A DNA stretch of 64,000 nucleotides from Ignavibacteriota bacterium (GTDB taxonomy: Bacteria > Bacteroidota > Ignavibacteria > UBA10030): the NCBI GenBank assembly GCA_963727825.1, contig CAVSHO010000001.1, positions 32,001 to 96,000 on the forward strand, given 5' to 3'. The translations under genes were made by a program, and so were the position numbers. The notes under the pieces are model-generated. The model worked only from the letters and a program-made list of their open reading frames with translations, ran no database searches and had not been told where the DNA came from. Shown here piece by piece: positions 9,551 through 56,853 of the stretch. Position 1 is the stretch's first letter. Each line of letters opens with the position of its first letter.

Positions 9551-9554
9551 AATA

Positions 9555-13852: not shown

Positions 13853-14029
13853 TAGATAGAAGTTAAAATTAGTATTGAAAAGATCTTGGCCTTAAAAACT
13901 AATACAACAATAATCTCTACAATATTCAACTTTTAATTCAAAGTTGAATAAGTTACACTGATCAATTATCTAGATTATTATGGAGTCAATTGTACAATCA
14001 AAGTTTTATTGGTTCGGATTATTGTAAAA

Positions 14030-16582: not shown

Positions 16583-16710
16583 AAATATTTTTGATTCCTA
16601 ACGAATATTGAGAATAATATAACCGATAATCAGCGTTTTTTGATTTAGTGTAAAAGATATAATAAAGAGAAAAGGAATGACATTCAATAAATTCGTCGTG
16701 CTATACAATG

Positions 16711-17520: not shown

Positions 17521-17522
17521 TC

Positions 17523-17557
17523 AAGTCAAAATTAAAAAGTAAAAATGAAAAAGTATA
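17523..17557 (+). repeat. 7-mer tandem tract (5 degenerate units)
   Basis: AAGTCAA AATTAAA AAGTAAA AATGAAA AAGTATA in an intergenic gap. Confidence 0.55.
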
Positions 17558-17596
17558 TATGATTAAAATGGAACCATTGTAGAATAAACTAAATAC

Positions 17597-18715: not shown

Positions 18716-18720
18716 AAAAG

Positions 18721-21581: not shown

Positions 21582-21596
21582 AGACTCAAATGATTC

Positions 21597-23024: not shown

Positions 23025-23115
23025 CTCTTGAGGAATTATTATACAAGCGTAAAATAGAAATTGTACTATATAATAGCATTATATCTTTATTTGTGCCAAT
23101 GATGACAAATTGTTT

Positions 23116-23859: not shown

Positions 23860-23952
23860 TTAGTATATTAAAGTTAGAACAATATCTAACTAAGTACAAT
23901 AAATTGCATCGTTTAGTTATTTTTGATTGAAATAAACGTACAGCACAGAACC

Positions 23953-39092: not shown

Positions 39093-40862
39093 TTATTTAA
39101 ATAAATTCTTTTGAATTTCATTCACTAAGCTAGAAGGAACAGCTATTCCAAGTTGTATCGCTTTTTGGCAATGATCTAATGCCGACTGATATTGACCAGA
39201 TTCATAATAGAGGAATGAAAGGTTAAGATGTGCATTACCTATTGTAGGATCTAATCGCAAGGCTTCTTGCCATGCTTTCTCGGCTTTAGTTGGTTCGTGA
39301 GCACTATAATAGAGAATACCTAGATTATATCGAATAGATGCATCTTGTGGGTTGCTTCGGATCGCAGCAAAAAAATTTTCTTCGGATGAAAGAAATAAGC
39401 CACGTGCAAAGTATGCCACAGCGAGTGCATTATTTAGCTCTGGAACAATATAATTTGATTTTTGTTCATTTTTTAAGTTATCAATAATTTTCCATAATTC
39501 TTCTTTCGACACTTCCGTACGCTTAGGTCCTCGCGGTTGTGACGCCTCCTTTATTGCGTTTATTTCATGGTTAAGCTTTTCGGGAACATTCATTCTTGTG
39601 ATATCACTATACAGTCTTGGATCGTTCGGTGATGTAGCGGCATCATATTCCATGAGCGTAAGAGAGTTCTTGAAGTTGAACGTGTGTGTATAGCTAAGCC
39701 ATCCTAAAGAAATAAAAACGAGAAATAATATTGGAGGAAAGTATTTATTTAAATATTCCAATCTGTTTTCATAAGACAGAGAAAGGAGAACGAACAATAT
39801 TCCCATGAACGGAAGATATATTCGGTGCTCATAAAATTTGGGCGGTGTGTGAACTCCAGAATTATAGTAAAATGTGGGGATAAGAAAGGCAAAAAACCAT
39901 ATGAAGCCAAAGATAATAAATTTCCAGTCTCTTCGTTCGGATAGCAAAAGGGCAAGTAAAAACAGACATACAGAAATAATGCCGGCAGTTACATGGATAT
40001 CACTTGAGACAGGGGCAAAAGCAAGATTGAACGGTAAAAATATTTTTCCAAAATAATATACTCCAATCCAAAGATTTGAAATTACAGTTGTCGCTGCCAG
40101 AAGCTTGTTTCCCATAGGCACAATCATTGCAGCAGACCGCAAAATGTACCAGTTGAACAGGACAATTCCCCATCCGACAAGAAAGAGAGCCGTTGTGATT
40201 GAGACTATTTCTTTTCCCTTCAGATTGTAAAAATATAACATGGCAAGAACTGGAAACACAATACTCGTTTCCTTTGTGAACATTGCAAGCGTAAAAAAAA
40301 GAAGATGAATAAAATACCATTTCAGATGAGAGGTTGAAAGAAATTTCATAAATGATATAAAACATAGCAAAATAAGAACAGCAAGCAGAGAATCATTCCT
40401 CCCTGCAATCCATGCAACTGCTTGCGTTAATGCAGGGTGAATACAAAACACAAGCGATCCGAGAAACGATATCGATCTTTTAAAACCAAGCATCTGAAAG
40501 GTAACAAAAAGAAGACAGCAGCTTGCGCAGTGCAAGATGATATCAATCAAATGGTAGCCAAAAGGCATTGTTCCGCTTATTTGTGCGCTGAGAATTAAGG
40601 AAAGAGTTAATAATGGGCGGTATAAGTTACCACCTTGCCCTTGATGACTTACATCCTCCAGAAATGCGTGACCTATATTAGACAAACTATTTATATGTGA
40701 AAAGTTTTCAACTATGAGGAAGTAATCGTCATGATGAGTGTATTCAGAGAATGTGAGAATCTGCAGATAAAGTAAAGAAGCGATAAGTGTTAGCCAAAAG
40801 TAGGGGTGCCAGGAACGTAAAAAGAAATCGTTAACATTAAGGTGTTTTTCCGGTGAATTCAT
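39093..40862 (-). CDS. TMTC-like multi-TM glycosyltransferase with C-terminal TPRs
   Basis: DDY after TM1, YRPL..LS, HP....AVAWI.GR.D.L, KE, E.R.YLP motifs and three C-terminal TPR-like repeats. Confidence 0.82.
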   Translation of the reverse strand: MNSPEKHLNVNDFFLRSWHPYFWLTLIASLLYLQILTFSEYTHHDDYFLIVENFSHINSLSNIGHAFLEDVSHQGQGGNLYRPLLTLSLILSAQISGTMPFGYHLIDIILHCASCCLLFVTFQMLGFKRSISFLGSLVFCIHPALTQAVAWIAGRNDSLLAVLILLCFISFMKFLSTSHLKWYFIHLLFFTLAMFTKETSIVFPVLAMLYFYNLKGKEIVSITTALFLVGWGIVLFNWYILRSAAMIVPMGNKLLAATTVISNLWIGVYYFGKIFLPFNLAFAPVSSDIHVTAGIISVCLFLLALLLSERRDWKFIIFGFIWFFAFLIPTFYYNSGVHTPPKFYEHRIYLPFMGILFVLLSLSYENRLEYLNKYFPPILFLVFISLGWLSYTHTFNFKNSLTLMEYDAATSPNDPRLYSDITRMNVPEKLNHEINAIKEASQPRGPKRTEVSKEELWKIIDNLKNEQKSNYIVPELNNALAVAYFARGLFLSSEENFFAAIRSNPQDASIRYNLGILYYSAHEPTKAEKAWQEALRLDPTIGNAHLNLSFLYYESGQYQSALDHCQKAIQLGIAVPSSLVNEIQKNLFK

Positions 40863-40947
40863 TCTACTTCATTTCTTTGGTCGGAGTTTGGTGGCTTTAG
40901 GTGTTGAAAGATATTCTTGATATTAAATCAAGCAACACTATATATAT

Positions 40948-43188
40948 TCAATGAGATATTTTTTCGCTATCGCGGTTTAATGTAAGGCGCATTACTTTAG
41001 AAAGTTCTCCAATTTGATATGGCTTTTGTAAGAATGTATCGCCTGCTGCTTTGCCAAGAGAAGCATCTATAACTCTGTCACCATAACCCGTTGAAATAAC
41101 TACCCGTACATTTGGGTCTATTTTCTTTAACTTTATAAAAGTTTCCTTTCCACTCATTTTTGGCATATTGAGATCGAGAATAACGACGTCGAATCGTTTT
41201 TTCTTTTTATAGAGATTGATTGCTTTCTGTCCGCTATCGACATGTGTAACTTGATATCCGAGACTATCTAACATTCCGTTAATAACGTCTGCAACATCTT
41301 TCTCGTCATCTATCACAAGTACTCGTTCATTGCCGCGTTCGAGTTTTGAAGGCCGCGCCTGCGGTTGAAAATTTTTTGCTGCAGGTATAATTGGAAAATG
41401 TACAGTGAATTCGGCACCATGGTTTAATTCGCTCTGAACGGTAACGAAACCATTATGGGAATTGACAACACCATACACTACAGAAAGCCCCAATCCTGTT
41501 CCTTTTCCTATATCTTTCGTTGTAAAAAATGGTTCGAAGATATGTTGTTGGGTTTTCGTATCCATACCAACGCCAGTATCTGTTATGGAGACGGCAACAT
41601 ATAATCCTTTGTGGATCTCAGGCGTGGCAGTTGGATCATCGTCTACCTGTTTGATTTTGCTTTGGACAGTGATAGTCCCTCCATCCGGCATGGCATCCCG
41701 AGCGTTGATGAGCAAGTTGAGAAATGCTTGTTGAAGTTGTCCGTCATCACCATTAATGATGCACACTTCGTCTGTTAATTTTTTCTCAGTAAGAATTGTC
41801 TTATCGGTGCTGCGTTCGAAAAGCCGCAGTGTTTCTTCGATAATATCATTTACCACTATAGGCCGGAATTGCACATTGCTCTTGCGTGCGAACGTTAACA
41901 GCTGTCGTGTTAAACTGGCACCACGCCGAGCGGCAGTCTCAATTATGTCAGCGAAGCGATACCAACGATCATCATGTTTCATCTTTCGCTTCATAATTGA
42001 AGTTGAGCCAAGAATTGAAGTGAGGATATTGTTAAAGTCATGAGCAATTCCGCCGGCAAGATTTCCAATGCTGTCGATGCGTTGAGCATGAATGATTTTC
42101 GCTTCGAAAGCTTTTTGTTCTGTGATATCACGTGCCACTGCGCGCACAAAGGGTTGTCCGGTTTCATCCAGAATTATAGAAGCGTTAATGCTTACGTCAA
42201 TTAATTCGCCGTTTTTTGCTGTAAATTTTTCCTCCAGGCCTTTGATTCCTTTGTTCCAGTTAAAGATATTATTAAGATTCTGTTGCGCTTCTTTTCGGTA
42301 TTCTGGTGGATATAGTTTCAAAATAGACTCGCCGACTAATTCCTCTTTACTATATCCCAATCGTGTCGCTTCTGTCTTGTTACAACTGATAATTATGCCA
42401 GCTTTGTTGAAAATGTGAGACATATCCGGCGAATTTTCAAAGAGATCAATGTAACGCTCTTCCGATTTATGGACTTGCTCAAATAGCATGGCATTTTCCA
42501 TAGCAATACCGATCTGGTTGGCGAATGCCATGATTAAAGCAATTTGTTTATTGGAGAATGCATCTCGATTTCTGCTTCCCAAAACGATCAGTCCGGACAT
42601 CTGGTCTTTCATCATAATTGGTACTGATGCTAATGATCCAATAACACCGTATGCCCATGGGTAGCCGTTGCTTGAATCAGATTTCTTTGGCCGTTTCATA
42701 ATACGAGGAGAATGAACCCATCTCATTTTTTCGTGATCAACTCCAATAGCAGTATCTACGACAGCAAAATTTAATTCTTCAGTTCCACGAAGAGCCTTGA
42801 GCACAAGTTGATGGTTTTCTACACTAAATATCCATCCGTACTCTACTTCGAGTAAACGTTTCATTTCGAGAAGAGCATTGTGTAGAAGAAATTGAACACC
42901 AATTGCTCGATTTACGGATTCAGCAAATGTGTTTAGTGCGAGCAATTCTTGTTTTTGCTCTTCAAGCAGTCGCCCATACTTTAATGTGAAGAAGACAATA
43001 ATAAATCCAAATACACCGACGGTAAGAACACTCCCAAATAATAGTAGTTCAAGTGTGTGGCCGCTCGTCATCCGCACAACCACAATTGTTACGAGGGTTA
43101 CTACCACAGCAACAGATATGACGATCTGTGCTTGTTCAACTGGTCCAAGTGAGGTGCGAAGTTTTAGAACGTTACGGAAGTTTGCCAT
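40948..43188 (-). CDS. Hybrid sensor histidine kinase (2TM-GAF-PAS-HisKA-HATPase-REC)
   Basis: AGGIAHDFNNIL H-box, NL..NARDAM, DTG.GM, FEPFFTTK..GKGTGLGL, C-terminal VIDDE...DLNMP...KP. Confidence 0.94.
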   Translation of the reverse strand: MANFRNVLKLRTSLGPVEQAQIVISVAVVVTLVTIVVVRMTSGHTLELLLFGSVLTVGVFGFIIVFFTLKYGRLLEEQKQELLALNTFAESVNRAIGVQFLLHNALLEMKRLLEVEYGWIFSVENHQLVLKALRGTEELNFAVVDTAIGVDHEKMRWVHSPRIMKRPKKSDSSNGYPWAYGVIGSLASVPIMMKDQMSGLIVLGSRNRDAFSNKQIALIMAFANQIGIAMENAMLFEQVHKSEERYIDLFENSPDMSHIFNKAGIIISCNKTEATRLGYSKEELVGESILKLYPPEYRKEAQQNLNNIFNWNKGIKGLEEKFTAKNGELIDVSINASIILDETGQPFVRAVARDITEQKAFEAKIIHAQRIDSIGNLAGGIAHDFNNILTSILGSTSIMKRKMKHDDRWYRFADIIETAARRGASLTRQLLTFARKSNVQFRPIVVNDIIEETLRLFERSTDKTILTEKKLTDEVCIINGDDGQLQQAFLNLLINARDAMPDGGTITVQSKIKQVDDDPTATPEIHKGLYVAVSITDTGVGMDTKTQQHIFEPFFTTKDIGKGTGLGLSVVYGVVNSHNGFVTVQSELNHGAEFTVHFPIIPAAKNFQPQARPSKLERGNERVLVIDDEKDVADVINGMLDSLGYQVTHVDSGQKAINLYKKKKRFDVVILDLNMPKMSGKETFIKLKKIDPNVRVVISTGYGDRVIDASLGKAAGDTFLQKPYQIGELSKVMRLTLNRDSEKISH

Positions 43189-43251
43189 ACTATAGAATCT
43201 TTGTTTGAGCGGTTTGTTTCCAATAAACCAAATTACTTTATTGAAGGTTTC

Positions 43252-43632
43252 TTAAACGGATAAATGTTTGGAGAGAACAGAACTCACTTCGTCTTCATTG
43301 AACGGTTTAATCAAATAATCAACTGCGCCAAGCGTGCGCGCCACTTTGCGAGCATCATAATCATCAATAGCAGAGAAAAATATCACTGGAGTTGAAGAAG
43401 TTAAAGGATTACGTTTCAAGCTATCTACTAGATCGAAACCATTCATATCCGGCATCCGAACATCACTAAAAATCAAATCTGGTCTAAAAGTTTTCAAGGC
43501 TTTCAACGCTTCTGCCCCGCTTCCGGCGGTAAGGACATCATAGCCATGACTTCGGAGGATATGTGAAGTAATCTTCTGCCAAGCCGGCTCGTCGTCTATA
43601 ACGAGTATATGTTTTTTCCTTTTAACGGGCAT
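43252..43632 (-). CDS. Single-domain response regulator (CheY-like)
   Basis: ILVIDDE, SDVRMP.MNG, YLIKPF motifs; ATG at 43632 preferred. Confidence 0.9.
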   Translation of the reverse strand: MPVKRKKHILVIDDEPAWQKITSHILRSHGYDVLTAGSGAEALKALKTFRPDLIFSDVRMPDMNGFDLVDSLKRNPLTSSTPVIFFSAIDDYDARKVARTLGAVDYLIKPFNEDEVSSVLSKHLSV

Positions 43633-43849
43633 CTTAGACTCTGTAGTATTATTTTCAAGATACAAAGGAGGAGAATAGAAAGCAAACCTGATTTACGAAT
43701 ACGAAATATTTGATATAATGGAAACAGAGGTAATTCCGTCCTGTGTCATCTTGACTCTGTGCGGTAAATTGTTCCACTCCTTCAAGAAATTGTTGAAGCT
43801 TTTTACGCAGAAAAAGAGGGTGGGTAAACGAAAATTGATCTTGCCCGAT

Positions 43850-43865
43850 TGGTACGAAACTTGGA
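43850..43865 (+). promoter_or_regulatory. Possible sigma54 -24/-12 promoter for the pilin-like gene
   Basis: TGGTAC-GAAAC-TTGGA against the consensus TGGCAC-N5-TTGCW; the -12 GC is GG here. Confidence 0.35.
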
Positions 43866-43943
43866 GATAATATGCAGTCGAATGAAGAAATAAACAATTA
43901 ACACAATTCACTTTATTACAAACTTTTTATTGGAGGATTTATT

Positions 43944-44324
43944 ATGGGACAACAACAGTTATTACTCATCATCCTGGGCGTTATCATTGTCGGTATCGCA
44001 ATTGCCGTAGGATTGAGCCTGTTCAGTGCGCAAAGTGTTCAGGCAAATCATGATGCAATTATCAATGATTTAAATAATATTTCGGCAAACGCATATCAGT
44101 ACTATATTCGTCCTGCCTCTATGGGAGGTGGCGCAAACTCTTATACAGGATATACTATTCCATCTAGAATGTCGTCTAACGAAAATGCTTCATATGCTGC
44201 TGTCCCTAATGGCACAACCAACTGTGCTATTACAGGTACATCATCTTCGGTAACCGGCGCCACTATATTAGCTACAGTAGATAATACAGGACATGTTGCT
44301 ATAACTACTAGCTATGCTTGGTAA
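43944..44324 (+). CDS. Pilin-like protein 1 (MGQQQ N-terminus)
   Basis: MG-QQQ then a ~22-aa hydrophobic helix, an amphipathic helix, YY.RP.SMGGG and a Ser/Thr-rich beta-like C-terminus; strong RBS GGAGG at 43932-43936. Confidence 0.7.
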   Translation: MGQQQLLLIILGVIIVGIAIAVGLSLFSAQSVQANHDAIINDLNNISANAYQYYIRPASMGGGANSYTGYTIPSRMSSNENASYAAVPNGTTNCAITGTSSSVTGATILATVDNTGHVAITTSYAW

Positions 44325-44363
44325 GCTATAGTTCTGAGTGGGATTTATGTGATTTATATATAT

Positions 44364-44406
44364 ATCCCAACCATTTTCTTATTGCAAGTGGTTGGGATTT
44401 TTATTT
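44364..44406 (+). terminator. Rho-independent terminator after pilin-like gene 1
   Basis: ATCCCAACCA (44364-44373) / TGGTTGGGAT (44389-44398) followed by TTTTATTT. Confidence 0.75.
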
Positions 44407-44620
44407 AAGTTACATAAAGTGGAATTATATAGTAATTCGGTTGTTTACAATAACATATCTTAAAAGTAGACAACAAGATCAAGCTGTCCCGATTTTATGG
44501 GGATCAGCATATATGTGCAAGACATTATATAGATTCCAATCCCGTTAGGTTGTTACAAATCGGGAAGGAACGGCAGTGTATTATTACGATAGTTAACAGC
44601 AATTCATTAGAGAATTTATC

Positions 44621-45034
44621 ATGGGACAACAGCAGTTAATGCTAATCATACTTGGAATGGCCATTATTGGTATCGCACTGGCTGTTGGATTGAGTTTGTT
44701 TAGCTCTAATGGCGTTCAGGCGAACAAAGATGCAATTACCCATGATCTTCTTAATATTTTTGCAGCAAGTGCATATCACCACTATCTTCGTCCCCGAAGT
44801 ATGGGAGGCGGTGCATACGCTTTTGATGGTAGTCATGGCGGCAGCCCATATGTTATACCAACGATGTTGGCGAGCAACGCAAATGGCATATATGTTGCTG
44901 TCAATACACCAAGTACGTGCACTATCACAGGTAGTTCTGTTGCCTATCCTGGTAATTCAGTTTCGTTAACAATTGGTGCTGATGGTAAGCCTGCTCCTCC
45001 TGGTTGGGTTGTTGTTGGCCCGGACTTCAATTAA
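44621..45034 (+). CDS. Pilin-like protein 2 (paralog of 43944-44324)
   Basis: MGQQQLMLIILGMAIIGIALAVGLSLF...QAN.DAI..DL.N...AY..Y.RP.SMGGG; the C-terminal half diverges. Confidence 0.7.
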   Translation: MGQQQLMLIILGMAIIGIALAVGLSLFSSNGVQANKDAITHDLLNIFAASAYHHYLRPRSMGGGAYAFDGSHGGSPYVIPTMLASNANGIYVAVNTPSTCTITGSSVAYPGNSVSLTIGADGKPAPPGWVVVGPDFN

Positions 45035-45256
45035 GCTTCATGCCTGATTATGGCAAAGTTATTTAATATGGATTCTATATCATCTGGATAAAGGTGGTTA
45101 GATTTTTTCCTATTTTGCACTTCATTGAACTATCATTAATCTGTTTTACGTATTCTTACTTGTATTTATCCTTTACTACTATTCCGCAAAATGTTGTTAT
45201 TCACATAATGGTAGGAAACACTTTTTCTTTATAAAACTTTATTGTATATATCTGTT

Positions 45257-45973
45257 ATGAAACCAAAATCTAAAGTTATTGTTGTCTTACCAGCCTATCA
45301 GGCTGAGAAGACATTAGAACTAACTGTTCGCGATATTTCACTCTCCGTCGTTGATGAAATTATTTTAGTTGACGATATGAGCAATGATCATACCGTGGAG
45401 ATTGCACGGAAATTTAATCTTGTTGTTGAACAACATACAAAGAATTTAGGCTATGGTGCGAATCAAAAAACATGCTACCAATTAGCCCTTCGTCGAAATG
45501 CAGATATCGTTGTTATGCTTCACCCTGATTATCAATATGACCCTAAGCTCATTCCTCATTTTGTTGATTTTATCCAAAATGGCTACTTCGACGTAATGCT
45601 CGGCACTCGAATACGCACAAGAAAGGAAGCTTTAGCAGGAGGAATGCCGCGATATAAATACTTTTCAAACCGACTCTTGACATTCATAGAGAACATTATC
45701 ACAGGGCAAAATCTATCCGAATGGCATACGGGCATGAGAGCATACAGCCGTCGAGTACTAGAGTCGATCGATTATTTAAAAAATTCGGATGATTTTGTTT
45801 TCGATAGCCAGGTGTTATTTCAAATTGTGGAGCATGGCTTTCGCATTGGAGAAATCCCCGTACCTGTCCGGTATTTTCCAGAAGCTTCCAGCATTAATTT
45901 CTCACGTAGTTTGCGATATGGAATTGGAACGATCGGAACCGCGTTAAAGTTCTTAATAAGAAAAATCTTCTGA
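45257..45973 (+). CDS. GT2 polyprenol-phosphate sugar synthase (Dpm1/Ppm1-like)
   Basis: [50 protein letters not shown]; short soluble GT2. ATG at 45257 preferred. Confidence 0.85.
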
Positions 45974-46003
45974 TCTATCAGTTGGGCGGGCGGCATCATT
46001 AAT

Positions 46004-47632
46004 ATGAGACTGAAAATACTAAACATTCCTTACCCACTAATATTCCTATTTTTCATCATTCTTTTCACAATTTTTTTTCGGGTGCGATTATTAAATGTTC
46101 CTCTAGAGCGCGATGAAGGTGAATATGCTTATATAGGTCAGCTCATTCTTGATGGGACTCCGCCTTACACCGAAGCATATAATATGAAATTCCCCGGTAT
46201 TTACTTTATCTATGCCGGAATATTATGGCTTTTCGGTGAAACACACACAGCAATTCATTTTTGTCTACTCATTGTCAATGTGCTCTCGATTGTACTACTT
46301 TACATTTTTGCACGCAGAGCCTATGATGATTGGGTTGCGGCAGCTTCTGCAGGCGCCTTTGCGCTCTTGAGTATGAGTTACCATGTTCAAGGGTTTTGGG
46401 CAAATGCTGAACATTTTATTTTGCCTTTCGTAATAGGCGCAAATATCCTCTTGCTTTCCGGGTTGAAGAAAAACCGAATAAAATATATTCTATTCAGTGG
46501 GATCCTGTTTGGCTGTGGAGCTCTTGTAAAACAGCAGGGCGCATTTTTTGGCCTCTTCGGATTCGCAGCTTTGCTTGTTTTGTTATGGCAAAATAAAACA
46601 TTTGAAAAAAAGATTTACTGGGAATGCATTTTAGCTTATTCTGGAGGAGTTATTATTCCCTTGCTCCTATGTTTTTCCTACCTCGCTTATGCAGGAGTTC
46701 TTGAAAAATTTTATCTTTGGACTTTTATCTACGCAAAGGAATATAGTTCGATAACATCCGTAATGGATATTAAATACAATTTCATTAGAGGGTTCCAATC
46801 CATCTTGTATTTTGCGTCTCTTATTTGGATCATAGCCGGAATAGGATTGATTACTTTATTTTCCGGCAAATATAATAAGCAATCGGGCATTCTCATTATA
46901 GGGTTACTCATTGCTGGCGTCATTGCGCTTTCGGTTGGCTTCTATTTTAGCCCACATTATTTTATATTAGTACTGCCTGCAACAGCCGTTCTTTTTGGAA
47001 TTGGAATTCGATATATTTTTCATATTTTTTCATCTGCTTCATCATCAATAGTACGCTATTTCCCACCCATCTTTATTGTTACGATAACAATTCTTGGCAC
47101 TATCGCAGCTCACTGGGATGTCCTATATCAATTCTCACTTGCTCAGGTGACTGAAACAGTATATCACAGTAATCCTTTTCTATTTTCTTCTAAGATTGCA
47201 AAAATAATAAGTGAAAATACTTCAAAAGAAGATCGAATAGCTATAATCGGAAATGAACCGCAATTCCTATTTTATTCTCACCGCAGGTCTGCGACATCGT
47301 TTATTTATACTTACTCTATTGGTGAAGACCAACCGCTTGCCGAACAATTTCGCTTTGAAATGATACAACAAATTGAATCGTCATTTCCCAAACTTCTCGT
47401 TTATTCAAGTATTCAACCCGAATGGTATAAAAAACCAAAAGGTTGGGAAGAGTTAGATAAATGGTTTTTTAGCTTTGCGAATTTACATTATGCTCCATTT
47501 GCCCGTTTTGAATACAATAATATTAAAGACACATTACTAATTACAGATACAGATAGGATATTAAAGAAACCGACGCATTTATTTTGGATCACGATTTATA
47601 AGAAACTATTAACTGATGATAAGCAAAAATGA
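46004..47632 (+). CDS. ArnT/PMT_2-like GT-C membrane glycosyltransferase
   Basis: PLERDEG.YAY.G..IL.G..PY......K.PG, AN.E.F, KQ, HYF motifs; about 11 TMs. Confidence 0.83.
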   Translation: MRLKILNIPYPLIFLFFIILFTIFFRVRLLNVPLERDEGEYAYIGQLILDGTPPYTEAYNMKFPGIYFIYAGILWLFGETHTAIHFCLLIVNVLSIVLLYIFARRAYDDWVAAASAGAFALLSMSYHVQGFWANAEHFILPFVIGANILLLSGLKKNRIKYILFSGILFGCGALVKQQGAFFGLFGFAALLVLLWQNKTFEKKIYWECILAYSGGVIIPLLLCFSYLAYAGVLEKFYLWTFIYAKEYSSITSVMDIKYNFIRGFQSILYFASLIWIIAGIGLITLFSGKYNKQSGILIIGLLIAGVIALSVGFYFSPHYFILVLPATAVLFGIGIRYIFHIFSSASSSIVRYFPPIFIVTITILGTIAAHWDVLYQFSLAQVTETVYHSNPFLFSSKIAKIISENTSKEDRIAIIGNEPQFLFYSHRRSATSFIYTYSIGEDQPLAEQFRFEMIQQIESSFPKLLVYSSIQPEWYKKPKGWEELDKWFFSFANLHYAPFARFEYNNIKDTLLITDTDRILKKPTHLFWITIYKKLLTDDKQK

Positions 47633-47689
47633 AAAGCACAGATGTTGGTAAAATTAGAAAAGAGGTCTTACTTTCGTTTGAGTTTTTTA

Positions 47690-47718
47690 TTGCTGATAAG
47701 TCTGTAGATATGTACATT
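47690..47718 (+). promoter_or_regulatory. sigma70-type promoter
   Basis: TTGCTG, 17 bp, TACATT upstream of 47804. Confidence 0.45.
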
Positions 47719-47803
47719 AAATCAGCACTATGAGGATACGAACGAAGGGATGGCTATTTGAATTATCCACTGTCCGCCAGCATTCGTTGTTCAACTTGAA
47801 ACC

Positions 47804-49657
47804 ATGCACGATCATGGCAGGATAGACATCCATAAGCAAAGCATGAACCGAAACGATAAAAGAGAATACACCATCATACTGGGATTGCTGATCGCTCTCG
47901 GCTTAGTTCTCGTCGTTACGACAATTAAAGGCCCCTTCATAATCGACGAGGACAACTATCTAGTTACTGTAATTGGCCTCCGCCAAGGGGTTCTTACCGT
48001 ACCCGGTACGGAAGGACTCACGCCAAGTAAAGAGCTTTTCTTTTTTGACCCGGAGGCATATGGTAGAATCGCTTCCCGCACGCCTGTATTTTCTATCGCA
48101 CCACCATTGTATGCACCAATAGCTCTTCCATTTGTGTTTTTGGGTTGGCGAGGTCTAGTGCTCCTCAATACCATTTCATATCTGCTCACGGCATTCATTG
48201 TTTTTGTGACGGTAAAACACTTTTCGACTGAGCGCCAGACACCATGGCTCGCTGCAGCGCTTGTGTTGTTTGGAGGATATGCGATCGAGTATGCTCAAGG
48301 CGTCTGGCCCCACATGCTTTCTGTATGCCTGGTAACGTCTGCTGTCTTTGCCGCCAGCAGAGTATGGAATGGGGGAAGACCACAGATCGCGATCATCTGC
48401 GGATTGCTGATGGGCATTGCCACCGGGGTTAGAGAGCAGAACATTATCCTAACCGGGCTATTGGGTATAACGCTACTTCTATTCGGTGTAAAAAAAATTG
48501 TCTCATCCTTTTGGTTCGCCCTCGGAGCTTTGCTTCCTCTTACACTCATAGGAATAATTAATTTTTTTAGACAGGGAATATTCCATCCGTTTCCGAAGGC
48601 GGTCGCATTTTCAGGTCAGTTGACTCAGAGTGTAAGCGGTAGTTCGACTAGTTCGCCTCTGCAAATGTTCTGGGCACGGGTGGTTGATTTTTCCTCGTAC
48701 CCGCCAATTACAGACTCCATCCAATCTCTCTTCTACAGAAAGGATCCCGTATCCGGCGTTGTCTTCGTATTCGGAGTAGTGAAAAAGGCACTAATTCAAT
48801 CTTCTCCCTGGGTTGCCCTGGCGTTGGTAATTCTAATTCTTGTCTGGCTAAACAGAAATCTGTATTCGAAAGATGTGAAAAAAAATCTCAGAGCTCTCTC
48901 TTTGTTAATCCTCCCTTTTCTTGTGTTCATGACATTGGTGGGGGGAGTACGAACAGATGGGCTTTGTTACAATCAGCGATATTTTCTTGAAGTCATTCCG
49001 TTGGCGGCGATTACCATCGCACTTGCACTCGACGGACTTGCCCTTCCCATCGTACCTATGGTCACTGGCTTACTGGGTTCAGGTATTCTGTTTGCACTGA
49101 CGTTGATGCTCTCGTCTCGTTCCCTGTATGGAATTGCTCTCACCAGGATTCCGCTTCTTTTGGCTGCAGTCCTAGTGATGGTCTGGATTTTTCGATCAGA
49201 AAAGTCTATACACTTGATCTTCCCACTCCTAATAGGACTTTGTATCGGGTGGGCGATGTTTGTTCACGTATTTGATGATCTCTCAGCATCGCGGACACGA
49301 AGGAGTAGGCAAGCTGCACAACTTGCAGTTCTGGAATCGACCATACCAAATCATTCCGCTCTTTTCGCATATTGGGGTTCGAAGGATGCTGCAGGGCCGC
49401 TCTTGCTTACGCGCGATGTCGTGATCCTCGATGTCTGGGCAGATAATGGAGTTGATGCTGTTCGGCTTACACATGAGCTCGAGCTCCAAAACCGCCGGAT
49501 CTTCGTCTTGACGGATTGGTTTCCTGATTTAGTGCTGAAAGGAATTGTAGGCAAAGATTCTCTCGCTGTTGTATCTAGACGTACGATTGGTATCGGTGAA
49601 GTTGTCAAACGGAATCAAGAGAATAATCATATGGAAATGAGCTCTCCGAAACTATAA
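47804..49657 (+). CDS. Multi-TM putative GT-C glycosyltransferase
   Basis: IDE..Y after TM1, PPLY...A.PF, Y....WPH, RE, N.RY.LE motifs; alternative start at 47843; TAATG coupling to the next gene. Confidence 0.65.
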   Translation: MHDHGRIDIHKQSMNRNDKREYTIILGLLIALGLVLVVTTIKGPFIIDEDNYLVTVIGLRQGVLTVPGTEGLTPSKELFFFDPEAYGRIASRTPVFSIAPPLYAPIALPFVFLGWRGLVLLNTISYLLTAFIVFVTVKHFSTERQTPWLAAALVLFGGYAIEYAQGVWPHMLSVCLVTSAVFAASRVWNGGRPQIAIICGLLMGIATGVREQNIILTGLLGITLLLFGVKKIVSSFWFALGALLPLTLIGIINFFRQGIFHPFPKAVAFSGQLTQSVSGSSTSSPLQMFWARVVDFSSYPPITDSIQSLFYRKDPVSGVVFVFGVVKKALIQSSPWVALALVILILVWLNRNLYSKDVKKNLRALSLLILPFLVFMTLVGGVRTDGLCYNQRYFLEVIPLAAITIALALDGLALPIVPMVTGLLGSGILFALTLMLSSRSLYGIALTRIPLLLAAVLVMVWIFRSEKSIHLIFPLLIGLCIGWAMFVHVFDDLSASRTRRSRQAAQLAVLESTIPNHSALFAYWGSKDAAGPLLLTRDVVILDVWADNGVDAVRLTHELELQNRRIFVLTDWFPDLVLKGIVGKDSLAVVSRRTIGIGEVVKRNQENNHMEMSSPKL

Positions 49658-51213
49658 TGAATCTCCGCAAACAATTACTCACATGGTTGCCCACTTTCAC
49701 CGTGATCGCCATATTCCTAATCTATCTACGCACTTTGCTACCCGGGATTGGATACTCAGGCGATACATCAAAATTTCAATTCGTGGGCAAGGTTCTTGGC
49801 ACACCTCATGAACCGGGTTCGCCGACTTACGTTATGCTCAATTTTCTTTTCGTGAACATATTCCCAATCGGTACGACAGCTTTCAAGGCAAATCTGTTTT
49901 CAGCAATAACCTCAATGCTTTGCCTGTGGGTTCTCTCGCGTTCCCTGATTTTACTCGGTGTGCGTCCTTTCATCGCCGCTTGTACAGTCGCAATTTTTGG
50001 GTTCACATACACCTTCTGGTCGCAATCGGTAATCGCCGAAGTGTATTCGTTATGCATACTCTTCATCGCGATTACTCTGTATTACTTCATTCGGTGGCAC
50101 CTCTTTGGGGAGTATAGATATTTCCTATTCGCTTGTGCGTTCTATTCCTTTTCTTTTGGTGATCATCTCATCGTCGTGACATTGTTTCCTGCAATATTCT
50201 TTTTAGTTTTGGCAACAAGGAGGGATTATTTCACTAAGCCGCGGATCATTGTGCACGTGACTATCTTGATTCTTCTAGGAGCGCTCCAATATGGTTATCT
50301 GTTTTGGAGAACATATGCCCATGACACGTCCTATCTCGAAATTGCAGTTACAAATCTCAACGATCTCTGGCGCTATGCAAGTGGAGGGCAATTCCATGAT
50401 AAATTGATGGATGGAGGCCTGAACAAAGCTTTCTTTATTCGGATGCCTATAATGGTTCGCCTAGCGTGGCTTGAATATTCTGTGTTCTTACCTTTTGCCA
50501 TTCTAAGTTTTTTCGTCATTCGTGATACTTCGTTGAGAGTATTTCTCGTACTATGTGCAGCAGGAACATTTGTGTTTACATGCATATATGGAATTCCGGA
50601 CATATATGTTTATATGATTCCAGTGTACTATATCTTGGCATTAGCTCTTGGGATTGGCTTGGAATGGCTTGCCAGCTGCTGCACGCGGCGCTCCTTGATT
50701 CTTTTTCAGCTCTCTCTTGTTTGCATGCCCTGCCTCTTCCTGTCTGTCAACTATCAAAAGGCGGATCAAAGCAGCAATGTGAGCGCGAAGGAGTTCGTTG
50801 AACGCTCGCTCAAGTCTATTGGCAGAAAGTCGCTCATCGTCTGTCCAAAATATGATTGGGGAGAAAATTTTTGGTATTATATTTTTGCAGAAGGATATCA
50901 GCAAGACAGCATCTATGCTTTTTACCCGCATGATACTGAAGTGCCGGTCGAATCGCTGGAATCGTACATCAACGACGGTAAACCGCTTTATTTACCTGTC
51001 CAGCGCTGTTACACTCCCGCCGGACTGACAGTATATTTCTGTACTTCCTCCGAAGAACGTGATTTCGATGATTCTCGCGCGCGATACCCATCCATTAAGA
51101 CTATTCTTCCCTTTTCTATAAGTGATCCTTCTATGGAGCGTATGATAAATAACGGTTTCCGATTTACACAAATAGGAATTGGTATGTACAGAATAGATAA
51201 ACCTTCACTTTGA
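49657..51213 (+). CDS. DUF2723 / TMEM260-like membrane glycosyltransferase
   Basis: YLRTL.PG....GD...FQ.....LG.PH.PG.P.Y, NLFSA, FWSQS.IAEVY, H motifs. Confidence 0.85.
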   Translation: MNLRKQLLTWLPTFTVIAIFLIYLRTLLPGIGYSGDTSKFQFVGKVLGTPHEPGSPTYVMLNFLFVNIFPIGTTAFKANLFSAITSMLCLWVLSRSLILLGVRPFIAACTVAIFGFTYTFWSQSVIAEVYSLCILFIAITLYYFIRWHLFGEYRYFLFACAFYSFSFGDHLIVVTLFPAIFFLVLATRRDYFTKPRIIVHVTILILLGALQYGYLFWRTYAHDTSYLEIAVTNLNDLWRYASGGQFHDKLMDGGLNKAFFIRMPIMVRLAWLEYSVFLPFAILSFFVIRDTSLRVFLVLCAAGTFVFTCIYGIPDIYVYMIPVYYILALALGIGLEWLASCCTRRSLILFQLSLVCMPCLFLSVNYQKADQSSNVSAKEFVERSLKSIGRKSLIVCPKYDWGENFWYYIFAEGYQQDSIYAFYPHDTEVPVESLESYINDGKPLYLPVQRCYTPAGLTVYFCTSSEERDFDDSRARYPSIKTILPFSISDPSMERMINNGFRFTQIGIGMYRIDKPSL

Positions 51214-51234
51214 AATTCCTTCCTGCTAAGCATT

Positions 51235-51266
51235 CAATGGGGTACGCCTCAACTAAAACCCCATTG
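51235..51266. terminator. Hairpin between convergent genes
   Basis: CAATGGGGT (51235-51243) / ACCCCATTG (51258-51266). Confidence 0.45.
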
Positions 51267-51292
51267 GGGGCGATGTTGAGATGTTTGCATAA

Positions 51293-52522
51293 CTATTTCT
51301 TTCTTTTGTGTAAAATTATATTCCAATTCGGATTTATTGGAATGCTTACACTATCTTTTGTTCCGATTAAGCTGCTGTTATATTTCCAATTATAGTCTAT
51401 CATTTTTGTTCGTATTCCAATTGAAATAGATGAACAAGGTATAAGGAGCAGTAATGATATAATAAATATATTTTTCCAGATTCCTTGTTGATTTAAACAA
51501 AGTATTAAAGACCACGCGACCATTACATGAGGTAAATAATAATATCTGCCGGATATTGTCGTGACGAATGGAGAGAAATTGTACCTAGCTATGAGAGCTA
51601 TCAGTACTATTACTGATACGGTTAAAAACATAAATACTATCTTTAATATTCGTTTATCCTTTGAAGATTTTAGATAGGACAGGTAGAGAAGAATAGAATA
51701 AAAAGCTAACGCGCCGACGCTTATTATTAGTGCATTACTTTTCATCATAGATCTTCCAAAAAACAGTCCGCTGAACATCCTTCTTCCAAATATAGAAATG
51801 TAAACGTCTAAATTGAACATGTTACCCTCTTGCAAAATTTCTGTGCTCGGAACGATGAAGGAGAGTTGAATCAATAGCATGCAAAACGCTGTAACGAGCA
51901 AGGTATATCCATATATCTTTTTTGTATGTAATAATTTCCACACGAGAAAGGGGAATATAATAATCAGAAATGGACCTGTTAATCCTGCAAATATGATTAT
52001 AATAAAATCAGATATTACTTGAAGAGTGTAATTTCCGTATTTTTTATTAGGGGCGTCTTTTAGTAACGTCAATACGAGCAATAAACACAATATCCATTGG
52101 AGATTTGTTACGTTGAGAAAGACCTCATTCAATACTTGTGGAACAATTACAATTGAAAGAGCTAAGAGTGGTTTAAATGGTAATGGCAGTCTTGGTGAAA
52201 AACAATGAGCGATTACTATAATAGTAATTAACAGACACGTATAATTGTAAACTGCCGGTATGTTAGCATATGAAAAGAACAAGTCGGCAAATACTGCTAT
52301 AAGTCTTGGAACAATATGAAGATAGCCGGCATATGGAGTAAATATGGACGCGGCACCATATTCATATTGTTGAGCGAAGAAGATCGTTCCGTCTTCTGCC
52401 CAAAACTGAGGATTAATCAAAGAATCCGATTTTCGAACTATGAGTATAAGTATTGCAAGTACTATAAAGGCAATATTTTTATAATTTATAAACCTATTTT
52501 GTGCGACATGTCTTGTATCCAT
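51293..52522 (-). CDS. Multi-TM putative GT-C glycosyltransferase (FWAEDG type)
   Basis: R.......PQFWAEDG..F..Q, PYAGYLH..PRL.A, E.F.N.TN.QW, GL.GP, GRY.Y.P motifs; AT-rich. Confidence 0.68.
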   Translation of the reverse strand: MDTRHVAQNRFINYKNIAFIVLAILILIVRKSDSLINPQFWAEDGTIFFAQQYEYGAASIFTPYAGYLHIVPRLIAVFADLFFSYANIPAVYNYTCLLITIIVIAHCFSPRLPLPFKPLLALSIVIVPQVLNEVFLNVTNLQWILCLLLVLTLLKDAPNKKYGNYTLQVISDFIIIIFAGLTGPFLIIIFPFLVWKLLHTKKIYGYTLLVTAFCMLLIQLSFIVPSTEILQEGNMFNLDVYISIFGRRMFSGLFFGRSMMKSNALIISVGALAFYSILLYLSYLKSSKDKRILKIVFMFLTVSVIVLIALIARYNFSPFVTTISGRYYYLPHVMVAWSLILCLNQQGIWKNIFIISLLLLIPCSSISIGIRTKMIDYNWKYNSSLIGTKDSVSIPINPNWNIILHKRKK

Positions 52523-54076: not shown

Positions 54077-55492
54077 ATGCCTGAAGCGTCTTTTCTTTTT
54101 TCTCAATATGGGCATGTTGTTGATTTGCTGCCCGAGATGGTGCTAATCCTGGATGATGAAAACAGGGTTCTCGACGCCAACAAAATAGCCGTCGATGAGC
54201 TGGGAGTGATTGTCCGACCATCGCATCCAAAATATGTCTTCGATATAATTCCTGAAGATGAACGTACTGTTTTTAGAAACTTGTTTCCGTTTACCGACCA
54301 ATTGAAATTTGAAACTAAATTTCGTAGGCGAGATAGATCGGTAATCGATGTTAGGGGGATGGTGCGGATCTTGCATTCGGGTCAAACGAAATACTGGGTG
54401 CTGGTGATGCGCGATGTAACAAAAGAAAAGCGGAAAGAACTAGATTTACTTCGTTTCTCCAATGTCATCCACAATACAATTAATCCTATACAGATCAGCG
54501 ATGCAAATGGAACAATGGTGTATGTCAATCCGGCTTTTGAAAAAGTGACCGGTTATAGCAATACAGAATTGATAGGAAAGAATCCCAATATCTTAAACAG
54601 CCGTAAGCATAGCAAAGAATTTTGGTCTGGAGTATGGAAGCATATTATTTCGGGCAAAGTTTGGATAGGTAGAATTGAAAACCGGCGGAAAGATGGGAGT
54701 CCATTTTTCACAGAGCTTGTCATTTCGCCGATCGTTGATTCGCATGGCAAAATCGCGGGTTATCTTGGTGCGCACCGGGATATCACAGAACAAATTATTT
54801 TGGAGCAACAGCTTGTTCGTTCACAACGTATGGAAAGTATCGGCACTCTCGCAGCCGGTATTGCGCACGAAGTTGGTAACCCGCTAACAGCTATTTCATC
54901 GCTAGTACAAGTCCTTCAGCGTACAAGCGTAGATGAATTTGCCAAAGAGAAATTAGAGTTAATCAATAGTCAAGTGAATCGTATTACCCGGATCATTCGT
55001 GAACTTGTAGATTTTTCGCGTCCATCAACGCACGTTGTGAAACCGACGAATATCAACCGAATTGTCAAAGAAGCGCTGAACATTGTTCAGTATGGGAAAA
55101 AAGTTAAGGATATTACTTTTACTCTCGAATTGGATGAACAGCTTCCTGAGATTGCCGCAGTGCCAGATCAAATCGTTCAGGTTTTTATCAACATTCTAAT
55201 GAATGCCGTGGATGCATTGGATGAACGCCGTGGTACGATCACTGTTCGCAGTTGTAAGAACGATCATGCGGTTGAAGTGATAGTGCAAGATACAGGAAAA
55301 GGAATTGAGTCTTCAGCATTGGAAAAAATCTTCGAACCGTTCTATACTACAAAAACTACGGGCCAAGGCACGGGGCTTGGGTTATGGGTGAGTTACGGTA
55401 TCGTAAAAAGTTTTGGCGGCGATGTGTTTGTGGAAAGTATTCCCGAAAAGGGAAGCACCTTCACCGTCTCGTTTCCCTGGAAAGGTATCTAA
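54077..55492 (+). CDS. Cytoplasmic PAS-PAS histidine kinase (NtrB/AtoS-like)
   Basis: No TM; two PAS domains, the second NifL-like (YVN.AF..VTGY...E.IG.N..IL, W.G.I.NRRKDG, YLG.HRDIT); AHEVGNPL H-box; N, G1, F and G2 boxes. Confidence 0.93.
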   Translation: MPEASFLFSQYGHVVDLLPEMVLILDDENRVLDANKIAVDELGVIVRPSHPKYVFDIIPEDERTVFRNLFPFTDQLKFETKFRRRDRSVIDVRGMVRILHSGQTKYWVLVMRDVTKEKRKELDLLRFSNVIHNTINPIQISDANGTMVYVNPAFEKVTGYSNTELIGKNPNILNSRKHSKEFWSGVWKHIISGKVWIGRIENRRKDGSPFFTELVISPIVDSHGKIAGYLGAHRDITEQIILEQQLVRSQRMESIGTLAAGIAHEVGNPLTAISSLVQVLQRTSVDEFAKEKLELINSQVNRITRIIRELVDFSRPSTHVVKPTNINRIVKEALNIVQYGKKVKDITFTLELDEQLPEIAAVPDQIVQVFINILMNAVDALDERRGTITVRSCKNDHAVEVIVQDTGKGIESSALEKIFEPFYTTKTTGQGTGLGLWVSYGIVKSFGGDVFVESIPEKGSTFTVSFPWKGI

Positions 55493-56853
55493 TGGCGCAA
55501 CGTATATTAGTGGTTGATGATGAACAAATAATACGTGAATCCCTCTCGTTCATTTTAAAGAAAGAAGGATATAATGTTGAAGAAGCGGCAAACGGTAAAG
55601 ACGCATTAACGAAACATGAAGCAAATCTATTCGATATCATCATCACCGATATTGAAATGCCTGAAATGAAAGGAGTCGATTTGCTGAAGCAAATTCGTCA
55701 GCGGACGCCACAAACATTGGTTGTTATTATTACGGCATTTGGATCTGTCGAGACGGCAGTGCTTGCACTGCGCGAAGGCGCCGCGGATTATATTTTAAAG
55801 CCGGTTAACTTTGATGATCTGTTATACCGTGTGAAGAAGCTTTGCGATTACCATGCACTGATTGTCGAAAATTCTCTCTTACGTCGAGAACTTCAGCGCA
55901 CCTATGATTTCGATCAAATTATAGGTCAAAGCACTCCGATGAAAAAAGTCTTCGAGGTAATTAAACGTGTTGCTCATAGCGAAGGTACTGTATTAATCAC
56001 CGGTAAAAGCGGTACTGGAAAAGAGATTGTTGCGCGAGCTATTCACTATAACAGTCCGCGACACGGAAAACGATTTTTACCTATCAATTGCGGTGCTATT
56101 GTTGACACATTGTTTGAAAGCGAGCTCTTCGGACACAAAAAGGGGTCTTTCACAGGTGCAACAGTAGACAAAGAGGGATTGTTGAAAGTTGCTGAAGGCG
56201 GCACGGTCTTCCTTGATGAAGTAAGTGAAATTCCAATTCAACTTCAGGTTAAATTGTTGCGTGCCCTTGAGCAAAGAGAAATTACACCTGTCGGCATGAC
56301 GGAACCAATTAAAATTGATGTTCGAATTATTGCCGCTACAAATCGAGATCTGCGCAAAGAGGTGGAGAATGGCAGGTTCCGCGACGATCTTTATTATCGT
56401 TTGAATGTTGTCGAAATCGATTTGCCGTCACTCAAGGAACGTCCTGACGATATTCCTATTCTTGCACAGCATTTTCTTGACATCTTTAAAAAGCAAATGA
56501 GCAAACCAATTCAGGGTTTTGCAAACGAAGCTATGCGTGCATTGCTTCAGTACCAATGGAAAGGCGAAGTACGTGAGTTAGAGAATGTCATAGAGCGCGC
56601 AGTCATCTTTTGCGATGAAGAATTTATCGGACTTGAACATCTTCCGGAATACATGAGACCTAAAGAAGATATTCCTTCAATTTCTTCCGGTCATGGGACA
56701 CTCAAGGATGCAGTTAAAAGTTTTGAACGGCAATTCATTCAACAGACGCTATCAGCTTGCGCACAGAACAAGGAAGCAGCTGCCAAAGTTTTAGGTGTTA
56801 GTCTTTCTTCGCTCTATCGCAAATTAGAAGAACTACAAATACCGGTGCGCTGA
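55492..56853 (+). CDS. sigma54-dependent response regulator (NtrC/AtoC family)
   Basis: REC (VVDDE, DIEMP), GKSGTGKE, ESELFGH.KGSFTGA, FLDE, RIIAATN, FR.DLYYRLNV, W.G.VREL.N, Fis HTH. True start MAQRIL at 55492 (TAATG overlap). Confidence 0.95.
   Translation: MAQRILVVDDEQIIRESLSFILKKEGYNVEEAANGKDALTKHEANLFDIIITDIEMPEMKGVDLLKQIRQRTPQTLVVIITAFGSVETAVLALREGAADYILKPVNFDDLLYRVKKLCDYHALIVENSLLRRELQRTYDFDQIIGQSTPMKKVFEVIKRVAHSEGTVLITGKSGTGKEIVARAIHYNSPRHGKRFLPINCGAIVDTLFESELFGHKKGSFTGATVDKEGLLKVAEGGTVFLDEVSEIPIQLQVKLLRALEQREITPVGMTEPIKIDVRIIAATNRDLRKEVENGRFRDDLYYRLNVVEIDLPSLKERPDDIPILAQHFLDIFKKQMSKPIQGFANEAMRALLQYQWKGEVRELENVIERAVIFCDEEFIGLEHLPEYMRPKEDIPSISSGHGTLKDAVKSFERQFIQQTLSACAQNKEAAAKVLGVSLSSLYRKLEELQIPVR

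Follow-up and report, generated by a model that had tools for sequence, protein, structure and literature searches.

Leaderless pilin-like proteins of Ignavibacteriota as probable subunits of a type IVa pilus that in most carriers has no detectable prepilin peptidase

Type IVa pili have been described in Pseudomonas (PilA/PilB/PilC/PilT/PilMNOPQ/PilD), Myxococcus, Geobacter, Thermus and Neisseria, and the available parts of two published accounts treat a class III leader and a peptidase as defining, required parts of type IV filaments (PMC10191384, PMC4471445). The accessible portion of the Melioribacter roseus genome paper reports pilB, pilC, pilQ and pilT with neither pilA nor pilD. Here we describe a window of 64,000 nucleotides (nt; positions 32001-96000 of contig C1 of an Ignavibacteriota genome), which contains an island of ten genes around two small genes whose products start with Met-Gly-Gln-Gln-Gln (MGQQQ). 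All ten were found where the original prediction had placed them. The two small genes very likely code for the fibre subunit that had been missing from a retractable pilus. The system works like a type IVa pilus and is without two features by which the family is defined, the class III leader and the prepilin peptidase; the absence of the peptidase from most carriers is a new point that goes beyond the original prediction and is more surprising. The pilin fold, the linkage to type IVa genes, the lack of an upstream leader and the failure to detect an A24 peptidase in most carriers are results of computation. It counts against our interpretation that all of the evidence is of this kind (sequence and models), and that filament, N-terminus and glycan were not observed.

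Pilin 1 (43944..44324, + strand, 126 aa) is the candidate major subunit, and pilin 2 (44621..45034, +, 137 aa) is its paralogue, with 52% identity (66/126) and the same MGQQQL start, so that the tandem pair of small proteins in the original prediction was recovered as described. Neither protein had a match in Pfam or NCBIfam, and PF07963 was not found; pilin 2 matched the pilin profile with E 9e-50. An AlphaFold2 model of pilin 1 (58-sequence alignment, predicted local distance difference test (pLDDT) 88) consists of one helix at residues 3-55 and four strands, and has the lollipop architecture of a long N-terminal helix and a head on an antiparallel beta-sheet. Compared with 48,161 solved chains, the model adopts the type IVa pilin fold: all 12 matches at Z>=8 were type IV pilins, headed by Neisseria PilV (Z 10.4, root mean square deviation 1.9 over 87 residues), and the first non-pilin came at Z 6.4. 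A sequence search of the PDB gave Geobacter pilin as the sole matches (E 0.04 and 0.09). Two observations speak against this assignment: Foldseek found nothing in the PDB at E<=0.001 (best PilV, E 0.047), and Z values of 8-10 are middling for proteins with a long helix.

The pilin 1 family comprises 2,929 relatives out of 2,950 candidates, with 2,123 representatives at 50% identity, and its look-alike Atlas clusters were placed in Ignavibacteriota and Fidelibacterota. Residues 6-27 are hydrophobic in the window pilins and in 115 full-length representatives, for which the selection filter demanded a hydrophobic stretch; type IV pilins typically have 20-25 such residues at the N-terminus. We also observed the head domain in longer proteins, membrane-bound or secreted, that do not have the N-terminal helix (P0121, P0122, P0215 and P0240), with up to five matched stretches per protein. 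One helix-less head lies in this genome at C11:424264-425034, after genes resembling an extracytoplasmic function (ECF) sigma/anti-sigma pair, and a third, solitary MGQQQ gene is found at C10:214693-215100, away from the assembly operon.

Linkage to pilus genes was surveyed in 79 loci, taken from the best 80 of 499 confirmed matches; several come from the same genome as another locus, and contig ends truncate many. Within 10 kb of the pilin, pilC was found in 45 loci, pilB/pilT in 43, pilMN in 34, pilO in 31 and pilQ in 24, usually arranged as one to four pilins heading pilC-pilB-pilT-pilMN-pilO-pilQ. Among more distant families, pilC directly followed the pilin in five of the seven loci read. 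Of 201 genomes of the class, 102 matched the pilin profile and 104 the pilMN profile. A count by hand gave 100 genomes with both, 2 with the pilin only, 4 with pilMN only and 95 with neither, with the reservation that kin genomes are not independent and that a few pilin matches are partial. Pilins were also present in 61/151 genomes of a phylum-wide sample and in 18/51 genomes of a second phylum, to which a locus titled Calditrichaceae belongs. It has been supposed, in the M. roseus genome paper, that the operon is an incomplete remnant; the MGQQQ proteins would then be unrelated membrane proteins, as their lack of a Pfam or NCBIfam pilin match and the head-like domains in longer unrelated proteins might suggest (35 of 150 profile-found representatives were not full-length pilins). 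We find this scarcely credible in view of the pilin fold, the position at the operon head, the near-perfect co-occurrence and the retention in two phyla. Because of fold, synteny, co-occurrence and the lack of an upstream start (see below), which together support the leaderless pilin architecture originally claimed, we identify the MGQQQ proteins as type IVa pilins with high confidence.

The ATPase family PF00437 and the peptidase family PF01478 had no match within the 64 kb, so that the reported lack of a pilus ATPase and a prepilin peptidase in the window holds. The pil genes were found elsewhere in the genome: a pilC-pilB-pilT-pilMN-pilO-pilQ operon without a pilin on contig C11, and PilD on C7. 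The original prediction spoke of a surface filament of an uncharacterised pilin family; judging from gene content, its assembly type is a known one, that of a type IVa machine encoded elsewhere in the genome, and a self-contained new filament system was rejected because the machinery is this type IVa set. The assembly is rated 96.8% complete and 6.55% contaminated, and due to this contamination clusters on different contigs may not all come from one organism.

PilB and PilC were labelled by PF00437 (T2SSE) and PF00482 (T2SSF), with TIGR02538 as best NCBIfam match (E 1e-122, under the cut-off); PilT matched TIGR01420 with E 1e-93 and 314 bits (cut-off 319), and PilQ matched the secretin family PF00263. 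PilN (E 6e-8) and PilO (E 0.005) were recognised by profile matches to Myxococcus chains. The PilM half of the pilMN open reading frame (ORF) is putative, assigned by position and size, and its lack of any family match weakens the case for a complete machine; no separate PilP was recognised, and no search aimed at PilP was made. A short periplasmic pseudopilus, serving secretion or DNA uptake and never forming a surface fibre, could account for a PilB below the TIGR02538 cut-off, and for the fact that we saw no filament data for these taxa; the absence of Glu5 might also limit polymerisation. The operon, however, holds a PilT-like ATPase and PilMNO-like genes, a combination that marks type IVa pili according to the available part of a review, and an exposed fibre would agree with the variable heads, the presence of several paralogues, the sigma-54 sites and the neighbouring glycosyltransferase genes. 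We regard the pseudopilus as quite improbable, and propose that the MGQQQ proteins form an extended, retractile surface filament.

Several further pilus-related genes were noticed. A second leaderless mini-cluster in this genome (C1:440244-445438) consists of a short PilX-like gene, pilC, pilB and genes of the MSLGQ and MVFFD types, with no pilT or secretin; it is perhaps an alternative tip/motor set of the same machine. At C7:186814-188104, a PilB/GspE-like ATPase in two ORFs stands alone between ATP synthase genes and ffh. Genomes of family f17 (e.g. G013, C3:162459-164414) have a second pilMN-like gene directly 3' of a pilin gene, which suggests a second variant cluster. After pilQ, this genome encodes a 1,203-aa immunoglobulin (Ig)-like protein with Invasin_D3 and CarboxypepD_reg matches (C11:354724-358335), a possible adhesin; in some relatives, pilQ is followed by shorter fragments of such genes.

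The reading frames leave little room for a leader. The loci gave 124 pilin matches. A start could be recognised in 121, of which 120 were off the contig edge. None of the 120 had an in-frame ATG upstream before the stop, and 115 had no upstream ATG, GTG or TTG; the median distance from the pilin start to the upstream stop was 4 codons. A Shine-Dalgarno-like word precedes 99 of the 121 genes; in the window it is GGAGGA (43932..43937, +), 6 nt ahead of the MGQQQ start codon. The loci were found via N-terminal patterns and their N-terminal conservation is thus biased, so residues were tallied in 115 full-length sequences among the 150 profile-found representatives (filter: Met-Gly/Ser plus a hydrophobic stretch). 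Gln5 is kept in 114 of these, Gln4 in 109 and Gln3 in 101; Lys or Arg occurs within the first five residues in 2, and Asp or Glu within the first 25 in 3. A class III leader, i.e. a hydrophilic stretch of 6-26 residues ending in Gly or Ala, is missing, since only Met-Gly precedes the Gln triplet. MGQQQ pilins likewise have no Phe1, no basic residue at the N-terminus and no Glu5, a residue that most but not all type IV pilins possess.

No prepilin peptidase was found in 90 of the 102 pilin-positive genomes with PF01478 and a lineage PilD profile. PF01478 matched in 12/201 genomes of the class, 11 of them pilin carriers (control genomes 12/14), and the lineage profile, built from ten PilD proteins and used at E 0.01, added one real carrier, which brings the peptidase-positive carriers to 12/102. 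Weak matches to this profile in three further genomes (E 0.004-0.01) were dropped as noise, uninspected. In the distant families, 30/34 pilin carriers had no peptidase and 4/34 had one. PF06550 and PF06750 gave no convincing match in five near-complete PilD-less carriers: PF06750 hits in three of the five were ORFs that were read by eye as radical-SAM proteins, and one further match had six stops. All five of these carriers have a PilT-like gene, which passed the TIGR01420 cut-off in two, and they also have PilB-like genes. The canonical N-methyl motif occurs in 20/201 genomes, 17 of which are among the 102 pilin carriers.

Where PilD does occur, it mostly belongs to another pilus. In nine of the ten other PF01478-positive carriers it lies in a separate cluster, next to a GFSxxE pilin and its own ATPase; in the tenth it is on a 1.7-kb fragment. 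This genome likewise has PilD in a separate cluster with a canonical pilin. The cluster (C7:120262-147193) holds canonical class III pilins, pilD, pilC, a secretin, an ORF of 3,385 aa and a PilB/GspE-like ATPase that is split into two ORFs, and similar clusters beside very large ORFs hold the PilD of most other PilD-positive carriers. In two Calditrichota-type genomes, PilD belongs to a different pilus cluster, and in one of them a canonical pilin can be seen there; a genome of this type (locus L129, contig C40) carries a canonical type IVa cluster with a GFTMIE pilin and pilD besides the leaderless system. The M. roseus report fits a peptidase-free reading. Some caution is due on this point: the genome under study has PilD and so is not itself an example of peptidase absence, the absence rests on profile searches of mostly draft genomes in which a peptidase of another fold would be missed, and the comparison with M. 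roseus is drawn only from loci titled Melioribacteraceae.

The main rival is that the same pilus is built from subunits with a minimal leader, which an unrecognised protease of non-A24 type cleaves after a conserved Gly (MG-Q, MNTG-Q, MG-R, MFG-K). Features of the N-termini that weigh in its favour, and against translation in mature form, are readily named. Gly2 is present in 121/121 locus pilins (pattern-selected) and looks like a cleavage-site residue, and Gly stands just ahead of Gln, Lys or Arg in two families and three clusters of minor-pilin candidates. A leader that ends in Gly or Ala and can be shortened agrees with the available text of PMC10191384 and PMC4471445. In the Geobacter alignment register, anchored on the conserved Gly and Phe, Gln4 is position +1, Leu8 occupies the Glu5 site and the helix is three residues longer than in a canonical mature pilin; a cut would bring it nearer to canonical length. 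Counted from Met1, the best-conserved Gln is at position 5, as in the MNTGQ family of minor-pilin candidates. The structural match ranges begin at model residue 1, 3 or 4, and any register is tentative. Evidence for the enzyme itself did not emerge. Apart from the lack of an A24 peptidase in most carriers and of convincing PF06550 or PF06750 matches, the neighbour clusters of at least three loci contained no conserved peptidase, as judged from the N-termini and from 56 membrane proteins scanned with Pfam, and a PrsW-type protease gene was near a pilin in one locus only. The MxxMLD family of minor-pilin candidates has no such Gly, and Gly2 suits ordinary Met removal. Processing at Gly-Gln of the archaeal or Tad type was considered and dropped as unsupported, most carriers having no A24 peptidase. 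We judge the cleavage alternative to be unlikely, and the subunits probably need no dedicated peptidase, as the reading frames and profile searches suggest. In literature taken chiefly from outside subscription journals, supplements excluded, we found neither a description of this pilin family nor one of a type IV pilus without a peptidase.

Under the reading of a leaderless type IVa pilus, MGQQQ proteins would be the major pilin family in Ignavibacteria-type and related bacteria of the Fibrobacteres-Chlorobi-Bacteroidetes (FCB) group. A sigma-54-type promoter would drive a gene whose product is translated already "mature", with Met-Gly-Gln-Gln-Gln directly on the hydrophobic helix. This helix would enter the inner membrane by the signal recognition particle (SRP)/Sec route; no prepilin peptidase or N-methylase would act on it, and at most Met1 would be removed. 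PilB, PilC, PilMN and PilO would extend the fibre through PilQ, and PilT would retract it. Speculatively, an uncharged Gln could replace Glu5 if the N-terminus is uncharged or repositioned.

The tip of such a fibre is likely formed by minor pilins encoded by a leaderless trio. Three co-inherited leaderless gene types, with starts of the MNTGQ, MxxMLD and MG[RK]xA types, were found, and this genome has such a minor-pilin-like trio at C10:84504-87164, away from the assembly operon. The MNTGQ family is present in 106/201 genomes, including all 102 pilin carriers. No class III motif was found in three or four clusters of minor candidates (56 genes), even when they were read back to the upstream stop. 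The assignment is weakened by the lack of a Pfam match for the candidates, by a single PDB pilin match at E 0.22 and by a profile-profile probability of 1.5%; the major-pilin and MNTGQ profiles, compared with each other, showed no significant similarity, and a PDB search with that family gave no pilin. A complex prediction for two of the candidates scored 0.10 (mark 0.32) and was used neither for nor against the assignment.

Sigma-54 control of pilA is known from type IVa systems. Using a general -24/-12 consensus, we found a sigma-54-like site within 200 nt 5' of 33/76 first pilin genes, compared with a mean of 0.8 in shuffled sequences and 1 on the reverse strand. In the window, such a -24/-12 site (43850..43864, +; 9/11 matches) lies 94 nt 5' of pilin 1, and pilin 2 has none. 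An inverted repeat 3' of pilin 1 (44344..44418, +) has 33-nt arms with 82% complementarity; its hairpin (-33.6 kcal/mol for 44326-44420) was not picked up by a simple terminator scan, and it may be a terminator or an RNA-stabilising hairpin. Scans for sigma-70 promoters and terminators were at chance level. A PAS histidine kinase and an NtrC-type sigma-54 activator (54077..56853, +; Pfam) lie 1.5 kb beyond the island, and the same pair follows the pilin site in congeners; by analogy, it is a candidate regulator of the pilin. Two RNA runs from separate studies contained 5-6% of the region's words; RNA contigs from relatives cover the pilin genes, one of them bridging pilin 1 and the start of pilin 2, and were used for no conclusion, since contigs neither rank expression nor prove that a gene is transcribed.

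Downstream of the pilins is a block of glycosyltransferase genes. The GT2 (45242..45973, +), claimed as Dpm1/Ppm1-like, was confirmed by PF00535 (E 3e-20); it is of the polyprenyl-phosphate sugar synthase type, and its top NCBIfam matches are polyprenyl- and dolichyl-phosphate sugar synthases, under the cut-off. It may be the donor maker, supplying a lipid-phosphate sugar. Three putative glycosyltransferases of the C fold (GT-C) follow on the same strand: a PMT_2 protein with an RDE motif (46004..47632; PF13231 E 3e-17), a GT-C-like protein with an IDE motif (47804..49657; PMT_2 PF13231 E 0.005; NF047440 E 6e-16, under the cut-off) and a TMEM260-like GT-C of the protein O-mannosyltransferase family with a GD motif (49657..51213; PF11028 E 2e-15; PDB 9rql E 2e-8). 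A multi-pass membrane protein with a WAEDG motif (51293..52522, -) completes the four that had been claimed downstream. The acidic motifs were found in all four, and one part of the claim did not stand: this last gene lies on the minus strand, points towards the other three and is thus not co-transcribed with them, and it has no match in Pfam or NCBIfam, so that its status as a GT-C is a possible lead only. Its nearest named Atlas clusters are DUF6056 and Glucos_trans_II (14% of members), both 0.94, and its single-sequence model (pLDDT 50) was too poor for a structure search.

The divergent side of the island was confirmed as well. It consists of a GT-C-like membrane protein with C-terminal tetratricopeptide repeats (TPRs) and a DD motif after the first hydrophobic segment (39093..40862, -; PMT_2 E 4e-5, under the cut-off, and TPR matches), a hybrid histidine kinase (40948..43188, -; GAF-PAS-HisKA-HATPase-REC, Pfam) and a single-domain response regulator (43252..43665, -; PF00072 E 2e-29). 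The first has a presumably TMTC-like architecture; the kinase is a local neighbour in this genus and only a candidate for a role in the pilus. All five membrane proteins carry an acidic motif after the first hydrophobic segment (DD, RDE, IDE, GD, AED), and four of them (39093, 46004, 47804 and 49657) combine it with a GT-C profile match, which for 39093 and 47804 is under the Pfam cut-off. Four of the eight PMT_2 matches of the 3.1-Mb genome fall in the island. About 20 kb from it, at 7242-24936 (-) of the window, lies a gene cluster for a surface glycan; among its products are a YfhO-like protein (14030-16582) and a further PMT_2 GT-C (19878-21581).

The link between pilin and GT-C is strong within the family. 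Among 11 of its 12 genomes examined, a GT-C adjoins the pilin in nine; of the other two, one lacks it and one is truncated by the end of a contig. Homologues of the block lie beside pilins in relatives (GT2 77-93% identity, 39093 38-70%, 46004 41-84%, 47804 70%), in two settings: heading the pilC operon, as for the 47804 homologue, or between a hybrid kinase and a PDZ gene, as here. The GT-C gene sets vary between congeners. The pilins of this genus would have moved away from the assembly operon together with the GT2/GT-C block. The GT2 would then make the lipid-phosphate sugar and the GT-Cs would transfer it in the periplasm, most likely to the pilin heads (25% Ser+Thr in pilin 1, background 13%), yielding strain-variable coats.

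Across the class, the association is weaker, and several findings tell against the pilin as acceptor. GT-C genes were found in only 16 of the 79 loci (32 genes, from a Pfam scan of 56/86 multi-pass candidates and their sequence clusters), with 39093 homologues in 9/79 and 46004 homologues in 6/79. In 16 well-assembled genomes of the class, 6/78 PMT_2 matches lie within 10 kb of a pilin (0.9 expected); this concerns only 3/16 genomes (0.86 expected, P ~0.05; 0.21 at 20 kb). At L062 and L070, pilins stand at the same PDZ/kinase site with no GT-C, and a GT-C neighbour makes no difference to the Ser+Thr content of pilins (0.233 with, 0.227 without), which is thus not enriched. Since it is strong in the family and weak class-wide, the GT2/GT-C block is a lineage-restricted, variable accessory; the claim of an interchangeable cassette stands within the family and has little behind it over the class. 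Another GT-C-plus-TPR family of 820-890 aa, absent from the window, adjoins pilins in 9/79 loci (L028, L031, L056, L058, L064, L065, L083 and others).

The pilin may be as described and the block may nevertheless modify lipopolysaccharide or lipids, other surface proteins or fimbriae, the two sharing a variable surface-gene hotspot. Apart from the low class-wide count, a set of five enzymes looks large for a single small protein, two of them lie on the other strand, the TPR arms would suit larger protein substrates, and the G+C content of the island genes (0.33-0.47) is like that of separately acquired genes. We lean slightly away from this explanation: GT2 and GT-C homologues stay by the pilin in both settings, none of the 16 positive loci has its nearest GT-C more than 3 kb from the pilin, and at least one enzyme belongs to a protein O-glycosyltransferase family. 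Subunit glycosylation is common in archaea. A bacterial precedent is the membrane glycosyltransferase gene, TfpW or TfpO, next to pilA in Pseudomonas, for which the accessible parts of the reports propose phage shielding (bioRxiv 2020.04.19.049825, 150227). By this analogy, we give the pilin an even chance of being the GT-C acceptor.

Taken as a whole, a leaderless type IVa pilus together with its glycosyltransferase block is the best explanation, and one we hold to be fairly likely. Tentatively, and with a little less than an even chance, it may represent a widespread branch of type IVa pili, found in Ignavibacteria-type and other basal FCB bacteria, in which all subunits are leaderless, peptidase and methylase are gone and an uncharged residue stands where Glu5 would be. 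In some lineages the pilin would be accompanied by an exchangeable set of up to five GT-Cs, including TMEM260- and TMTC-like ones, which would give the fibre a sugar coat specific to the strain. If true, a natural type IVa pilus without leader and peptidase would show that cleavage has its role in storage or in the control of topology and not in assembly itself, and it would allow the functions of Glu5 and of the N-terminal charge to be tested in a natural system. The GT-C block would offer bacterial TMEM260-like enzymes with a small candidate acceptor.

With type IVa pili, the system shares the pilin fold, homologues of PilB, PilC, PilT, PilN, PilO and the secretin, a sigma-54-like promoter before the pilin and a minor-pilin-like trio. 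It differs from them in that class III leader, Phe1 and Glu5 are missing, most carriers have no PilD, PilM-like and PilN parts are joined in one ORF, and the pilin is unrecognised by Pfam or NCBIfam. Mannose-sensitive haemagglutinin (MSH(A)) pili also have no peptidase gene in the locus; according to the available text, however, a peptidase gene is systematically present at another place in MSH genomes (Denise et al. 2019, PMC6668835), whereas here none was found in 90/102 carriers, and the pilins have no leader to cut. Glu5 is likewise absent from archaeal pilins and archaellins and from GspK/PilX-type tip pilins, which, in the parts available of PMC4471445 and PMC10191384, nevertheless undergo cleavage by a prepilin peptidase; in the present case, it is the candidate for a bacterial major subunit that has no Glu5. 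Pseudomonas pilA-tfpW and pilA-tfpO, as far as their accessible descriptions go, share a strain-variable membrane glycosyltransferase gene next to the pilin, with phage shielding as a plausible parallel; different here are up to five sequence-distinct GT-C-like genes and a putative donor-making GT2, and the likeness is one of gene neighbourhood alone. Finally, the eukaryotic O-mannosyltransferases TMEM260 and TMTC1-4, judged from partly available sources, resemble 49657 in its matches to PF11028 and PDB 9rql and 39093 in its GT-C-plus-TPR layout, the TMTC likeness being one of PMT_2 and TPR matches alone, whereas the putative enzymes described here are bacterial.

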